Shown here: positions 6,773 to 44,600 of the stretch, one piece after another | How the letters are laid out: each line of letters starts with the position of its first letter | How positions within the stretch are numbered: position 1 is the stretch's first letter | Assembly: GCF_044324785.1 (NCBI RefSeq) | Contig: NZ_CP172127.1 | Reading direction: 5' to 3' (one strand) | DNA: 64,000 nucleotides | DNA from: Escherichia coli | GTDB taxonomy: Bacteria; Pseudomonadota; Gammaproteobacteria; Enterobacterales; Enterobacteriaceae | Notes under the pieces: model-generated | What the model was told of the DNA's origin: nothing | What the model saw: the letters and a program-made list of their open reading frames with translations, nothing else | The model's database searches: none | Made by a program: the position numbers and the translations under genes

Positions 6773-7534
6773 ATGCAATTGAGCAGCAGTGAACCTTGCG
6801 TGGTGATCCTGACCGAAAAAGAGGTAGAGGTAAGCGTTAATAACCATGCCACGTTTACCCTTCCGAAAAATTACCTGGCCGCCTTCGCGTGCAACAATAA
6901 CGTCATTGAACTCTCAACGTTAAATCACGTATTAATCACCCACATCAACCGCAACATCATCAACGATTATCTGTTGTTTTTAAATAAGAACTTAACCTGT
7001 GTAAAGCCCTGGTCGCGGCTGGCTACCCCGGTTATCGCTTGTCATAGCCGTACACCGGAAGTGTTCCGGCTAGCCGCCAACCACAGCAAGCAGCAACCCA
7101 GCAAACCCTGCGAAGCGGAGTTGACGCGCGCATTGCTTTTTACCGTATTGTCTAACTTTCTTGAGCAATCGCGGTTTATTGCCCTACTGATGTATATCTT
7201 ACGCAGCAGCGTCCGCGACAGCGTCTGCCGCATTATTCAAAGCGATATTCAGCATTACTGGAATCTGCGAATTGTCGCCAGTTCGCTATGTTTAAGCCCC
7301 AGCCTGCTCAAAAAGAAATTAAAAAACGAAAATACCAGCTATAGCCAGATTGTCACAGAGTGTCGTATGCGTTACGCCGTACAGATGTTATTGATGGATA
7401 ACAAAAATATCACTCAGGTAGCGCAATTATGTGGCTATAGCAGCACGTCGTACTTTATCTCTGTTTTTAAGGCGTTTTACGGCCTGACACCGTTGAATTA
7501 TCTCGCCAAACAGCGACAAAAAGTGATGTGGTGA
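6773..7534 (+). CDS. envY: AraC-family transcriptional regulator EnvY (porin thermoregulation)
   Basis: 253-aa ORF with C-terminal AraC-type HTH (…ITQVAQLCGYSSTSYFISVFKAFYGLTP…); synteny next to ompT. Confidence 0.85.
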   Translation: MQLSSSEPCVVILTEKEVEVSVNNHATFTLPKNYLAAFACNNNVIELSTLNHVLITHINRNIINDYLLFLNKNLTCVKPWSRLATPVIACHSRTPEVFRLAANHSKQQPSKPCEAELTRALLFTVLSNFLEQSRFIALLMYILRSSVRDSVCRIIQSDIQHYWNLRIVASSLCLSPSLLKKKLKNENTSYSQIVTECRMRYAVQMLLMDNKNITQVAQLCGYSSTSYFISVFKAFYGLTPLNYLAKQRQKVMW

Positions 7535-9230: not shown

Positions 9231-9899
9231 ATGGTGAAATTGATGAAAAAAAACACAGATGATGGGGCTAAAATTTACACACCACTTACCCTAAAGCTTT
9301 ATGACTGGTGGGTTTTGGGAGTATCAAATCGGCTTGCATGGGGATGTCCTACAAAGGAACACCTTCTTCCACACTTTCTGGAACATTTAGGTAACAACCA
9401 TCTGGATATTGGTGTTGGAACTGGGTTTTACCTTACTCACGTACCTGAGAGTAGTCTGATATCTTTAATGGATTTGAACGAAGCTAGCCTGAACGCGGCA
9501 TCTACAAGGGCTGGGGAATCAAAAATTAAACATAAAATTAGCCATGATGTTTTTGAACCTTATCCCGCGGCGTTACATGGCCAATTTGATTCCATTTCCA
9601 TGTTTTACCTTCTTCACTGCCTGCCTGGAAATATATCTACAAAAAGCTGTGTAATACGCAATGCGGCGCAGGCCTTAACTGACGATGGAACTCTATACGG
9701 AGCCACAATTCTTGGCGATGGAGTTGTGCACAATAGCTTCGGTCAAAAACTGATGCGCATTTACAATCAGAAAGGCATCTTTTCAAACACAAAAGATTCC
9801 GAAGAAGGCTTAACACATATACTCTCAGAGCATTTCGAGAATGTTAAAACCAAGGTTCAAGGTACTGTAGTAATGTTTTCCGCTTCAGGGAAAAAATAG
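9231..9899 (+). CDS. Class I SAM-dependent methyltransferase (YbcY-like)
   Basis: 222-aa ORF with methyltransferase motif I (LDIGVGTGFYL); AT-rich codon usage compared with flanking phage genes. Confidence 0.65.
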   Translation: MVKLMKKNTDDGAKIYTPLTLKLYDWWVLGVSNRLAWGCPTKEHLLPHFLEHLGNNHLDIGVGTGFYLTHVPESSLISLMDLNEASLNAASTRAGESKIKHKISHDVFEPYPAALHGQFDSISMFYLLHCLPGNISTKSCVIRNAAQALTDDGTLYGATILGDGVVHNSFGQKLMRIYNQKGIFSNTKDSEEGLTHILSEHFENVKTKVQGTVVMFSASGKK

Positions 9900-37448: not shown

Positions 37449-37910
37449 CTATCTGCACTGCTCATTAATATACTTCTGGGTTCCTTCCAGTTGTTTTTGC
37501 ATAGTGATCAGCCTCTCTCTGAGGGTGAAATAATCCCGTTCAGCGGTGTCTGCCAGTCGGGGGGAGGCTGCATTATCCACGCCGGAGGCGGTGGTGGCTT
37601 CACGCACTGACTGACAGACTGCTTTGATGTGCAACCGACGACGACCAGCGGCAACATCATCACGCAGAGCATCATTTTCAGCTTTCGCATTAGCTAACTC
37701 CTTCGTGTATTTTTCATCCAGTGCAGCAACATCACGCTGGCGCATCTGCATGCCAGTAATTGCCGCGTTCGCCAGCTTCAGTTCTCTGGCATTTTTGTCG
37801 CGCTGGGCTTTGTAGGTAATGGCGTTATCACGGTAATGATTAACAGCCCATGACAGGCAGACGATGATGCAGATAACCAGAGCGGAGATAATCGCGGTTA
37901 CTCTGTTCAT
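37449..37910 (-). CDS. Rz: Spanin inner-membrane subunit Rz
   Basis: ORF 37449..37922; from [29 protein letters not shown]… near-identical to lambda Rz. Confidence 0.85.
37508..37690 (-). CDS. Rz1: Spanin outer-membrane lipoprotein Rz1 (embedded in Rz, +1 frame)
   Basis: 60-aa ORF wholly inside Rz; lipobox VVGC and PPPPP motif, near-identical to lambda Rz1. Confidence 0.85.
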
Positions 37911-38404
37911 TGCTGGCCCCACAAACAGATTTCACGCTCAATCTCACGACGAGTCATGAGACCTTTCCATTGCTTACCGCCAGCATATGTCCAGCGACGT
38001 AGTTGATCACATGCGCCTTTGATATCGCCCTGGTTTATTTTGCGAAGAAGCGTCGATGTTCTGAAATTGCCAGCACCCACGTTGTAAACGAATGAGTAAA
38101 GAGCGCCGCGCGTTGTTTCCGGTATATCGACTTTGATGTACGGGTTAATTTGTCTGGCGACAGTGGCAAGGTCTTTATTCAAGAGTGCTTTGCATTCTGC
38201 TTTGGTATACGTTTTACCGAGCATGATGTCTTTTCCTGTATGCCCGTGACATACAGTCCATACACCAACAATATCTTTGTATGGTATGTAGCTGACACCT
38301 TCCAGACCATCGTTACCACTTGGGCCAGTGATTAACACTGATGCTATAGCAATTGCTCCGCCACCAATAGCAGCAGCAACGGCTTTTCGTAATGATGGAG
38401 GCAT
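37907..38404 (-). CDS. R: Endolysin with N-terminal signal-anchor-release domain (T4-lysozyme-like, phage 21 R / RrrD type)
   Basis: 165-aa ORF; Gly/Ala-rich hydrophobic N-terminus ([20 protein letters not shown]) then lysozyme fold; matches recalled DLP12 RrrD. Confidence 0.85.
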
Positions 38405-38619
38405 TATTCACCTCTCGCAGCCTTGCGCTTATCTTCTTTAATCTTGAAATAAAGGTTTGTCAGGTACGTCAGCAGGCCAAATACCAGGCTACCCAGCACA
38501 CCTATTGCTGCCCACTGTGAGGGCGTGACTTTATCGAGCAGCTGTAAAAACCAGTAGCCAGCACTGCCTGCGGAGGTGCCGTAGGCAATGCCCGTTGTTA
38601 ACTTATCCATGGATTTCAT
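38404..38619 (-). CDS. S: Pinholin (S21 / EssD type)
   Basis: 71-aa ORF with two TM segments directly upstream of the endolysin; stop/start overlap with R. Confidence 0.8.
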
Positions 38620-38807
38620 AGCCTCACCTCCGCAAATAACGGATGGTGTACACGGTTCGGAACGAAGAGGAAAGGTATAGAAGTTACATTAGCGTAAGGC
38701 TTGAACATCTATTCAAAAAGAAAAACGCCAGCGATTATTCTGGCGTAGCTGAAAGCATCATACAATTATCAAATACGAAAAATACAAAATCATTAAAACG
38801 CATCACG

Positions 38808-39537
38808 TTACATCATGTCTTTTTCTAAAAAAAATCTTGATAAATATTGATGGGGAGGAACACCAAAATATCTTCTGAAAACACTTACAAAATATGACGT
38901 GTTTTCATAACCGCATATCTCAGCAACTTTTCCAACAGAATATAAATTGTAGCTTAATAACCTTTCCGCCATCACCATTCGCTCTTCAAGAATTAATTTA
39001 CTAAATGATAAGCCTTCGTGCTTTAATTTTCTTTTTAACAGACTTTCACTCAGATACAGTCTTGAAGATATATCACAAAGTCTCCATGCTGCAGATATAT
39101 CCGTGTGAATAATAGCCTTAACTTTACTTCCTAAACTATTAAGACATCCAAATAAAAACTTTGCACTATTTTCTCTGAAGATAAGATAGCAAGACATGCA
39201 AGTGATATTTGATTTCTAACAAAATCCACAGTTCTGCCATCACAATTCAAGCATGCAATCAAGTTCTTTAACAATGAAAAATCTTCACATTCCACCATCA
39301 AGTATGCCGGATAAAACCTTCTTACAGAAAAAGGTGAGAGTGTGTTGCTTTTAAAGAAATCATTAACTGTTTTCTCTTCAACATCTACGATCATTACATG
39401 ATCTATATTTGATGAAAAAAATCTTTTAAATTGTAATCAATGAGAACAGCACTTCCTTTTTTAAACAAAATATCTTCTTTACCAATTCGGACATCAAACG
39501 AGTTCAACACCAAAATGATAGAACATATGTATGGCAT
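38808..39537 (-). pseudogene. AraC/XylS-family regulator disrupted by frameshifts (three consecutive ORF pieces)
   Basis: Fragments 39537-39400 (MPYICSIILVLNSFDVRIGKEDILF…, read manually), 39394-39131 and 39197-38808 (C-terminal AraC HTH …CGYENTSYFVSVFRRYFGVPP…) lie in different frames in collinear order; AT-rich. Confidence 0.55.
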
Positions 39538-39888
39538 ATTATCCACCTGATATCATTGGGGTTACACCAGGTAAGTATAGGTGGAAAATCAATATTCGCC
39601 AGTTCAACAATAAGGAAAATCTCATTGCATCACAAGTATAAAATTATGTATTTAACTCACAAAGACAAATTATTAAACCAATCTGTTATATTATATATAG
39701 CTGCGTGGAATCATAATATTATATATTTTGACTGGCATGTTTACCAACTTTAAGTTGCATCTCAATGGTTTCTTCAGCGTAAACAGAGTTTTTATACAAA
39801 CTGACACTCTGGGTATCATAGTGTAGTTTTTACGATTGTAAATATCCTGCATGCAGGAACTCATCCTTTTGGATGATATCGCATACAA

Positions 39889-40848
39889 TTAATTTACCAT
39901 CAGTCTTAGAGCCAGTTCGTCCGGATAGGGATCGAAGTAATTCTGTGTAAGCAAGTAGTCATTAGGATACTCACCCAGATAATGCTTCAGCAGAGTCAAC
40001 GGCGCAAGAAGAGGTAATGTGCCAGAACGATAGTTAAGTATAACCTCGCTCAACTCTTTACGCTGGCGTGTACTTAAGTAGTTACTAAAATACCCCTGTA
40101 TATGCATCAGCACATTCGTGTGATTTTTACGTGATGCAGGTTTTCTGAGAATCGCCATCAGCTTATCACGATACACCTCAAAGTATGATTCAAGGTCCGC
40201 CCACTCGTGTATTGCAGCCACAAATGGTCCCATATCTTTATAGCCTGCCTGACTATGCGCCAACAACTGAAGCTTATAACGACTATGAAAAGCTAATAAC
40301 TCTCTTCTTGATAATTTCTCCTTGTAAAGGTGATTGAGCTCATGCAAAGCAAAAACTCTTTCAACAAAATTCTCACGAAGCACTGGATCATGTAATCGCC
40401 CATCCTCTTCAACCGGTAGCCAGGAAAACTTTTCCATCAAAGTGCTCGTAAATAGTCCCACTCCATCTTTACGACCTCGATTACCATTTTCATCATAGAC
40501 ACGCACGCGCTCCATGCCACAGCTGGGAGATTTAGCACAAACCACAAACCCCGATACATCCTTTAATTTGTCCATATAAGAACGACTAAACTCTGTCATT
40601 CTCTCTGTCACATCCTCATTCTGGTCGTGGCTGAAACACATCCGTATATTTCCTTGCGTCGAGCGCACAAGACGTAGAGCAGGACGCGGAACTGGCAGCC
40701 CTATAGCCATTTCCGGACATACTGGTCTGAATGTTACCCATTCCACTAATTTGTCCATTAAAAAGTCAGCTCTTTTGTGACCACCATCAAAACGAACAGC
40801 AGAACCGGCCAAACAACCGCTGATTCCAATCACAGGTTTTTTTATCAT
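39889..40848 (-). CDS. DUF523/DUF1722-type protein (possible 2-thiouracil desulfurase-like family), phage cargo
   Basis: 319-aa ORF; N-terminal PVIGISGCLAG… region and C-terminal YbgA-like region; family assignment from memory only. Confidence 0.45.
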   Translation of the reverse strand: MIKKPVIGISGCLAGSAVRFDGGHKRADFLMDKLVEWVTFRPVCPEMAIGLPVPRPALRLVRSTQGNIRMCFSHDQNEDVTERMTEFSRSYMDKLKDVSGFVVCAKSPSCGMERVRVYDENGNRGRKDGVGLFTSTLMEKFSWLPVEEDGRLHDPVLRENFVERVFALHELNHLYKEKLSRRELLAFHSRYKLQLLAHSQAGYKDMGPFVAAIHEWADLESYFEVYRDKLMAILRKPASRKNHTNVLMHIQGYFSNYLSTRQRKELSEVILNYRSGTLPLLAPLTLLKHYLGEYPNDYLLTQNYFDPYPDELALRLMVN

Positions 40849-41040: not shown

Positions 41041-41565
41041 ATGAAGTTATGGCCTGTGTTGACTGGCATTGCACTCTCTTTCACTCTTATAGCATGTAAG
41101 GCCCCGACACCACCTAAAGGTGTGCAGCCGATTACAAATTTTGACGCCAACCGCTACCTCGGAAAATGGTATGAAATAGCTCGCCTCGAGAACCGGTTCG
41201 AACGTGGTCTGGAACAGGTCAGCGCTACTTATGGAAAACGGAACGACGGAGGGATTCGTGTACTTAACCGTGGATACGATCCAACGAAAAATAAATGGAG
41301 CGAGAGCGAAGGTAAAGCATACTTTACTGGAGATACTAAAACTGCAGCGTTGAAGGTTTCGTTTTTTGGCCCCTTCTATGGTGGCTATAATGTAATCAAA
41401 CTGGATGATGAGTATAAGTATGCTCTTGTCAGTGGCCCGAACAGAGAATACCTATGGATTCTGGCAAGGACCCCAACTATTCCAGATAAAGTAAAAGCAG
41501 ACTATGTGCGAACCGCTCAAAAGTTGGGATTCAATGTCAATGAATTATTATGGGTTAAACAATAA
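41041..41565 (+). CDS. Outer-membrane lipocalin (Blc-like lipoprotein)
   Basis: 174-aa ORF with lipobox (LIAC) and lipocalin motifs (…NRYLGKWYEIARL…SFFGPFYGGYNVI…); paralog-level similarity to E. coli Blc. Confidence 0.8.
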   Translation: MKLWPVLTGIALSFTLIACKAPTPPKGVQPITNFDANRYLGKWYEIARLENRFERGLEQVSATYGKRNDGGIRVLNRGYDPTKNKWSESEGKAYFTGDTKTAALKVSFFGPFYGGYNVIKLDDEYKYALVSGPNREYLWILARTPTIPDKVKADYVRTAQKLGFNVNELLWVKQ

Positions 41566-41593: not shown

Positions 41594-41620
41594 AAAAAAA
41601 CCAGCCTTTGGGGAGGCTGG
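41594..41620 (-). terminator. Candidate late terminator tR' (intrinsic, minus strand)
   Basis: Hairpin ccagcc-(8 nt)-ggctgg followed on the minus strand by a 7-T run, about 65 nt downstream of the putative pR'. Confidence 0.45.
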
Positions 41621-41679
41621 CTAAATCAGGAAACAAGCTGTTATATGATAATAACTACGTTGCGATTCTAACATTTAAA

Positions 41680-41720: not shown

Positions 41721-42113
41721 TTATTTCGAACAATCAGCATCCATCTCCAATCGGAGATCCAACACCATCAGCATACCCTCCACTACGCCCTCAGCTTTCT
41801 GGAGCATCCTGCCAACCCAACAATCAGATCGCCCATGCTTACGTGCAAGCGCCATAAAAGTCATGCCGCCGACATAATAGTCCACCAATAAATCATGCAA
41901 ATCGCTGTTGTTCTTTTTCAGACGGGCCATGCACCCGCAAATGATCATCGCGTCATCGTCACAACATTGCGGGCGAGATTTTACTTTTGAAGGAATTAAT
42001 CCCTTAAAACCGGCGGCAATGGACGACCAGGTCACATCTTCATGATTATTAGCCGCCCACGCTCCCCAACGCTCAAGAACCATCTGAATATCACGCATCA
42101 ACTTACTCCACAA
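41721..42113 (-). CDS. Q: Late-gene antiterminator Q (QuuD / phage 82-type)
   Basis: 130-aa ORF (start may be internal MRDIQM… at 42098) with Cys cluster ([16 protein letters not shown]) in the canonical position upstream of pR' and lysis genes. Confidence 0.7.
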
Positions 42114-43802: not shown

Positions 43803-44600
43803 TTACTCTCTGGAAGCTTTTCTTATCTCTCTTGGTGTTATATTAAAACGATTATGAAATCTTTCAGTAAAACGAGAAGGACACTTATAACCATTTTCTC
43901 TGGCAATCTCGCTTATAGGTTTTACCGTCGTTTGTATAGCAGACAACGCATTATTTAACCTCACATCGTCCAGTATACTTTGGAAACTTACCCCCTCGCT
44001 TGCTAGACGGCGATGTAATGTAGAAACAGAAATGTAGAGATATCGAGCAACCTTGTTTGCTGTCCATTTTGTGCCGGGTTCGGATAGCAGCAGGTTATAA
44101 CAACGACTTATCAATGATTGTTTACTATATGATAAAAGTAAATGATTAACATGATTCACTCCTAACGAAAGTAGAACGCCCATTGCTAAGTGCTCCTGAA
44201 TTTTAGTTGAGAAGCCTCGGGAAACAGATGTTTTTAGTTGCTCCCAACAATATATTAACTCAGGATTCTGAGGTAAAAAGAAACTTGTTTTGTTACGTAT
44301 TTGATCAGTTACCGTATAAAGTTTTTGGAAACTCTCAATTAAATCAATGGGTAAGTAAAGCATTTCTGCAAGATAAAGCCCTGCTTCAGGATAATTCTCA
44401 ATATAAAATTCATAACCACAAGGAAATAATATTATTTGATTATTATCAACAGTTAAAGTATGCGTCTCCCAATTGATAACTTTCTTTCCCTGACGGATAC
44501 GACACAAAGCTGGCATAAGAGGCTTAACCCTATGAATCTCATGATGTTTATGCATCCGTATTTCTTCGATCTTTAAGTTAGTCTTACCTCTTGCCAGCAT
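43803..44600 (-). CDS. ybcM: AraC-family transcriptional regulator YbcM
   Basis: 265-aa ORF with C-terminal AraC HTH; matches recalled DLP12 YbcM. Confidence 0.8.

Follow-up and report, generated by a model that had tools for sequence, protein, structure and literature searches.

The AraC-type regulators AppY, PatE and PsrB are prophage-encoded activators of gadE and hdeAB and of glutamate-dependent acid resistance (AR2; PMC10057817, PMC10877973). AppY directly activates gadE and AR2 genes (PMC10057817), PatE activates gadE, gadBC and hdeAB (PMC10877973), and overexpression of a 'PatE' gene of strain Nissle 1917 (CIW80_12240) raised acid tolerance (bioRxiv 10.1101/2025.08.01.668021). The RefSeq tag CIW80_RS12240 designates bcsZ and does not correspond to this Nissle tag. 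The genes of these regulators differ in location: appY lies at the far end of DLP12, the prophage at the argU site of E. coli K-12, beside ompT; PatE is encoded by z0321 in the prophage CP-933H (OI-8) of EHEC O157:H7; and the related YdeO is part of the chromosomal EvgAS-YdeO-GadE circuit.

A 64,000-nt stretch of an E. coli genome (contig NZ_CP172127.1; hereafter the window), corresponding to the argU/DLP12 region, contained a disrupted member of this group on its minus strand, at 38808-39537. Very probably, this region represents a genuine, inherited pseudogene of a cargo ('moron') gene for an AppY/YdeO/PatE-like AraC/XylS activator, located between the antiterminator gene Q and the holin gene of a lambda-like prophage inserted at argU. 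It is an ordinary pseudogene, already flagged in RefSeq by PGAP, and the AppY/YdeO/PatE-like family is already known; the sole point that goes beyond routine, and a mildly interesting one, is that the gene has been inactivated repeatedly and in parallel, through the same tracts, in different E. coli lineages.

The pseudogene spans 730 nt, compared with 732 nt and 243 aa for the intact allele, and the ORF list showed three collinear minus-strand ORFs across it, each in another frame (start positions 39537, 39394 and 39197, equal to 0, 1 and 2 modulo 3). Fragment 1 (ORF 39403-39546; coding part 39403-39537) begins at the native ATG at 39537, 5 nt downstream of a strong Shine-Dalgarno sequence read from the DNA (AGGTGG; 39543-39548, minus strand), and runs for 44 codons to a premature stop at 39403-39405, its residues 1-41 being 100% identical to the intact protein. 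Fragment 2 (39131-39394), an ORF of 87 aa, corresponds to the central part of the N-terminal domain; the native reading between both frameshifts extends over about 39159-39414. Fragment 3 (38808-39197) is a 129-aa ORF encoding the whole C-terminal double helix-turn-helix DNA-binding domain, with Pfam matches to HTH_18 (E 2e-15; about 38838-39068) and HTH_AraC (E 7e-13); the AraC/XylS C-terminal domain of ~100 aa with its two helix-turn-helix motifs was thus present. Its first 13 codons are out-of-frame sequence, and no Shine-Dalgarno sequence was present before its ATG at 39197, where the upstream sequence, read directly, is AAATCAAATATCACTTGC. Searching the window with the intact 243-aa protein (tblastn) returned residues 1-41 at 39537-39415, residues 36-133 at 39433-39140 and residues 128-243 at 39158-38811. 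The N-terminal and DNA-binding domains were not joined by an uninterrupted frame, but were distributed over three frames separated by two 1-nt deletions. On the identical sequence in NZ_AP027217, PGAP annotated the equivalent of 38808-39537, with exactly these boundaries, as "helix-turn-helix domain-containing protein, frameshifted".

Both lesions were placed by pairwise alignment with the intact allele of E. coli CE10 (WP_001146309.1; 732 nt, 243 aa), from which the pseudogene differs, besides the two deletions, by 3 SNPs inside the gene. Site 1 (39415-39421, minus strand; codons 39-42) is a coding-strand T7 (plus-strand A7) where the intact allele has T8, the longest run in the intact gene according to a homopolymer census. 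Site 2 (39154-39158, minus strand; codons 127-129) is a coding-strand T5 (plus-strand A5) instead of T6. As the two deletions sum to -2, the frame is never restored. No deletion was seen in the same alignment in the other homopolymers of the gene in the window (A6, and T8 at 38827-38834). The latter run results from one of the substitutions, at 38834 (A in the window, G in CE10), which makes a T8 of a coding-strand T7 beyond the DNA-binding domain, close to the pseudogene's 3' end. Both lesions arose by replication slippage in the lineage, with one T lost from T8 and one from T6. Translation from the native start therefore ends after 44 codons, leaving the DNA-binding domain in a third frame behind an ATG that lacks a ribosome-binding site, and a functional regulator would not be expected from the window allele, judging from its sequence.

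A preliminary description made from the DNA letters alone had proposed three collinear fragments of one regulator at these coordinates, which the ORF list, the tblastn matches and the coordinates of the PGAP pseudogene bore out. Its assignment to the small EnvY/AppY/Rns-like class of AraC/XylS regulators agreed with the HTH_18 and HTH_AraC domains and with matches to AppY, YdeO and EnvY, and the two frameshifts that it had suspected in AT-rich homopolymers were identified as T8 to T7 and T6 to T5 by the alignment to an intact homologue that it had called for. Two details required correction: the intact protein has 243 aa rather than roughly 260, and the upstream frameshift lies at 39415-39421 rather than at 39395-39400, which is the region of the fragment 1 stop and of the next ATG.

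The intact protein showed full-length collinear homology with AppY/YdeO/PatE-like activators, including over the N-terminal domain. With BLASTP, it was 31% identical to AppY (2e-41; residues 1-236 versus 1-237), 32% to YdeO (7e-38; 1-233 versus 1-231) and 30% to EnvY. The best NCBIfam model was that of YdeO (NF007407), which aligned from end to end (residues 1-234 against profile positions 1-232 of 253; 126.8 bits, E 1e-36). Identity as YdeO was nonetheless rejected, as this score is far below the 348-bit equivalog cut-off and indicates a paralogue; the genomic context differs as well. AppY is likewise a full-length collinear AraC/XylS activator belonging to a prophage at the same argU site, but it is a distant paralogue encoded outside the slot between Q and the holin gene. 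The best solved relative was the DNA-binding domain of GadX (3mkl; residues 136-235, E 2.6e-20), followed by CsvR, Rns and ToxT. Two other AraC-family genes were observed in the window: envY (6773-7534, plus strand), whose product is the EnvY compared above, and ybcM (43803-44600, minus strand).

The closest named relative found was ECs_0287 of O157 Sakai (54% identity over 235 ungapped residues, E 2e-88). It is the only AraC-type regulator in the Sakai prophage Sp1 and, given this position, is presumably PatE (z0321, OI-8). Like the intact protein, it is a prophage-borne AraC/XylS regulator of ~245 aa, collinear from the first residue; the two share the motif M-x-x-x-C-S-[VI]-I-L at the N-terminus, and their DNA-binding domains are almost identical. 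It differs in that the identity to PatE, through the presumed equivalence with ECs_0287, is only 54%, and in that its gene is located in a degenerate thrW prophage, at the right end, whereas the window copy occupies the slot between Q and the holin gene and is frameshifted. At the level of phage protein families, the intact protein matched PHROG 1450 (annotated 'unknown function') over its full length (9e-107). The gene was also found uninterrupted in the isolated phages IdasGreatGrand (98.8%) and Lambda_ev203/1H12 (82%), both of which carry the same Q-lipocalin-YbgA-AraC-holin cassette. The CE10 allele, in the same cassette, is 99.4% identical to the window at the nucleotide level over 1 kb; it and the phage alleles are intact, with T8 and T6, whereas the window is one base short in each run. 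The dN/dS ratio between the CE10 and ev203 (82%) alleles was 0.27; this value and the uninterrupted phage copies indicate that the intact form is functional and subject to purifying selection. The 243-aa protein of CE10 in its exact form (WP_001146309.1), although a RefSeq protein, had no entry in a 15-billion-protein collection. By analogy with homologues that are 31-54% identical, the intact protein probably activates host acid-resistance genes; expressed from its own promoter in a lysogen, it would activate gadE and hdeAB as AppY, YdeO, PatE and PsrB do.

Along the window, nfrB, nfrA, ybcH, envY and ompT precede a lambda-like prophage of ~45 kb, which is followed by its integrase, a tRNA gene and sfm-type fimbrial genes. 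The prophage extends over 12700-57583 and occupies the argU (DLP12) attachment site, which in K-12 is taken by the defective DLP12; the integrase of the window prophage (56328-57491) adjoins tRNA-Arg(UCU) at 57507-57583. Prophage integrity was assessed by tblastn of 61 CDS from a related region in NZ_OZ001728 against the window. Matches were obtained for 55 of them, and all 54 besides the AraC gene gave a single HSP, full-length save for a diverged tail-fibre N-terminal protein; rusA was intact. The lambda-like prophage looks complete apart from the AraC gene. At the ompT side, appY, which adjoins ompT in K-12, was not found in the window; an ORF at 9231-9899 (plus strand; PHROG 2132) follows ompT instead. 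Two further observations concern the same side of the prophage. An ORF between ompT and the tail-fibre genes (11727-12617, plus strand) showed partial similarity to the NCBIfam manganese catalase model ManCatBAC (167 bits, below the 350-bit cut-off), and a strong Rfam IS009 match (RF02111; 227.9 bits; 12777-12975, minus strand) lies within a 193-aa ORF (12737-13318) adjoining the tail-fibre gene.

Around the pseudogene, the order of genes, on the minus strand unless stated otherwise, is Q (41721-42098), an intact, divergently oriented gene for a Blc-like lipocalin (PHROG 2809; 41041-41565, plus strand), an intact YbgA-family gene with a 2-thiouracil desulfurase-like domain and DUF1722 (PHROG 3275; 39889-40848), the AraC pseudogene and the lysis cassette (37449-38619), comprising the holin gene essD (38404-38619), the lysozyme gene rrrD (37907-38404) and the spanin gene rzpD (37449-37922), then iss/bor. 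The gene therefore stands at the start of the late region, as cargo between Q and the holin gene of a lambdoid prophage, in keeping with the late-region cargo position initially proposed. Its moron nature is indicated by two features. The slot is bounded by conserved phage genes and holds other cargo in relatives, with nmpC occupying it in K-12 DLP12, and the base composition deviates, with a GC content of 31.5% for the AraC gene against 44-49% for ybgA, the lipocalin gene, Q, essD and rrrD and 50.5% for the prophage overall. The 351-nt spacer upstream of the gene has a GC content of 32.5%. A literature search on the lipocalin-YbgA-AraC cassette gave no match, and an Rfam search of the region returned no RNA family.

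Consensus matching gave a candidate sigma-70 promoter at 39718-39747 (minus strand; TTGGTA-18-TATAAT, 10 of 12) and a second candidate at 39842-39815 (minus strand; 10 of 12), such matches not being in excess of those in shuffled controls (14 versus 11.5 ± 3.5). An intrinsic-terminator-like hairpin (38715-38746, minus strand; ACGCCAG...CTGGCGT followed by TTTTCTTTTT) lies 62 nt past the pseudogene stop, before the holin gene. Another terminator-like hairpin (41599-41622, minus strand; a stem of 9 bp and then a T run) follows Q at a distance of ~100 nt, where the lambda late-operon terminator tR' would be expected. In the consensus scan, the number of terminator-like hairpins was no higher than in shuffled controls. 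Before reaching the lysis genes, late transcription would have to pass the hairpin at 41599-41622, cross the lipocalin gene in antisense and pass the hairpin that follows the pseudogene.

To investigate the distribution of the lesions, 38600-39900 was compared by megablast with 5,426 complete E. coli genomes, of which 1,508 had a match. Three genomes were 100% and two 99.9% identical over 1,301 nt, and many were 99.5% identical over 1,303 nt, i.e. 2 bases longer. Alleles were counted with exact-match queries of 81/82 nt and 91 nt. At site 1, among 533 genomes with a match, T7 had 231 exact matches and T8 had 242; at site 2, T5 had 9 and T6 had 564 among 894 genomes with a match. Both deletions on the window haplotype were present in six complete genomes (BEC1-S17-ESBL-07, Ec40743, JNE170426, PM22, LR-51 and 23-AB02114), which stem from several countries and from humans, pigs, cattle or an unstated source, and whose flanking IS rearrangements differ. 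The exact 129-aa product of fragment 3 was found on 230 public contigs from several sources, and the exact 44-aa product on at least 1000. The double-frameshift allele was observed in two rearranged prophage remnants: in NZ_AP027217, ybgA is cut short by ISEc52 and a P27-family terminase small subunit gene is among the neighbouring head genes, and in NZ_CP041919, ISEc52 stands in place of the holin side. As these remnants carry the identical allele, the dead allele must have outlasted later rearrangements or module exchange.

Alignment of 22 sequences over 38700-39700 placed T7 on three SNP backgrounds, namely the window type, the WCHEC020031/UK_Dog_Liverpool/504838 type, which differs from it at 39374, 39502 and 39627, and the ECCTRSRTH03/EC1515/AH01 type. 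T5 occurred on the window type and, separately, in the ETEC O6:H16 strains B2C, TW10598 and 2014EL-1346-6, which retain T8; M9682-C1 and 2011EL-1370-2, sister strains that are likewise O6:H16, share their haplotype but are fully intact. Strains H6 and ET151 combined T7 with a 1-nt deletion in a third tract, a coding-strand A6 (plus-strand T6, 39457-39462) that is unaffected in the window. Among intact alleles with the window-type 3' haplotype, the 14EC033-like one (11 genomes) came nearest, and no genome was found with the window haplotype and just one of the two deletions. In diverged alleles, the T8 tract was not conserved, being T4CT4 in ev203 (82%) and T6 in ECs_0287. Read from these haplotypes, the pattern points to at least four independent slippage events, part of which could be explained by prophage recombination.

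Shifted frames at homopolymers may also arise from miscalled bases, or may hide a product that is still made. Under the reading of a sequencing or assembly artefact, the cell would have an intact gene and the absence of two bases would reflect homopolymer miscalls in the assembly, and both lesions are indeed single-base deletions in A/T homopolymers, the typical error mode on some platforms. This was the sequencing-error hotspot considered initially alongside a recently inactivated cargo regulator. It is very unlikely, because the double-frameshift allele recurs, with the same SNP haplotype, in six independently sequenced complete genomes and the exact 129-aa shifted-frame and 44-aa products are widespread on public contigs; in addition, the single-frameshift T7 allele occurs in at least 231 of 533 carrier genomes, and the remaining homopolymers of the gene (A6, T8) show no deletion in the window. 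The recurrence of the same double-frameshift allele supports, instead, the inactivated cargo regulator. A full-length protein could in principle still be obtained from the shifted gene through transcriptional slippage or ribosomal frameshifting at the T runs. The Shigella gene mxiE offers a superficial likeness, as an AraC-family gene with a frame change at a T homopolymer. The functional, conserved form of mxiE is the out-of-frame one, which transcriptional slippage at T9 decodes. Here, in contrast, the in-frame allele is ancestral and is found in phages and hundreds of genomes, so that the shifted configuration is not the conserved state; two independent lesions would need two separate corrections, and the runs have just 7 and 5 T, short of the 9 nt or more of programmed slippage of the mxiE type. 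The probability of such recoding is negligible. Survival of the 129-aa C-terminal ORF as a stand-alone MarA/SoxS-like protein is hardly more credible, and we consider it extremely improbable. Fragment 3 does comprise the whole double helix-turn-helix domain at about the size of MarA, and isolated AraC-family DNA-binding domains can activate transcription if overproduced, but its ATG at 39197 lacks a Shine-Dalgarno sequence, its 13 leading codons are out of frame, and it starts 340 nt within a transcript whose upstream frames terminate.

The near 1:1 ratio of T7 to T8 among carriers raises the question of a contingency (phase-variable) locus, in which slippage at T8 would reversibly toggle the regulator and the window would represent the OFF state. 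Tract length is polymorphic among near-identical alleles (T8/T7, 242 versus 231; T6 versus T5 in O6:H16), T7 occurs on at least two to three SNP backgrounds, distinguished by differences within 40-90 nt to either side of the run, T6 was shortened to T5 inside ETEC O6:H16 whose sisters are identical yet intact, and the third tract (A6) was struck in H6 and ET151. However, the OFF state is not reversible through the tract alone, since the window has a second frameshift, and other strains a different one, that reversion of T7 would not repair. A large part of the T7 count probably stems from clonal expansion of heavily sequenced lineages, and recombination among prophages could shift alleles between backgrounds. 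An 8-base tract is also short for an efficient slippage switch. Taken with the second-site frameshifts, the lack of conservation of T8 in the 82% allele and in ECs_0287 makes one-way decay at mutational hotspots more plausible than a selected ON/OFF switch, which is distinctly improbable. The broader proposition that the tracts (T8, affected in about 43% of carriers, T6 and A6) are a recurrent target of adaptive loss or ON/OFF switching, rather than of neutral decay, is unlikely too, albeit less so; if true, lysogens would time and again switch off, or toggle, an activator of the acid-resistance network that the phage supplies. Under the preferred reading of an inherited cargo pseudogene, loss of the regulator would be tolerated or favoured in many lineages, so that its AT-rich homopolymers could be struck repeatedly.

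With the regulator dead and appY absent, the argU prophage of this strain would give no AppY/PatE-like input to the host acid-resistance network. More broadly, the intact PHROG 1450 family is a widespread cargo of the slot between Q and the holin gene in E. coli lambdoid phages, repeatedly inactivated at the same homopolymers, which makes it a handy natural experiment on the costs and advantages of regulators encoded by prophages.
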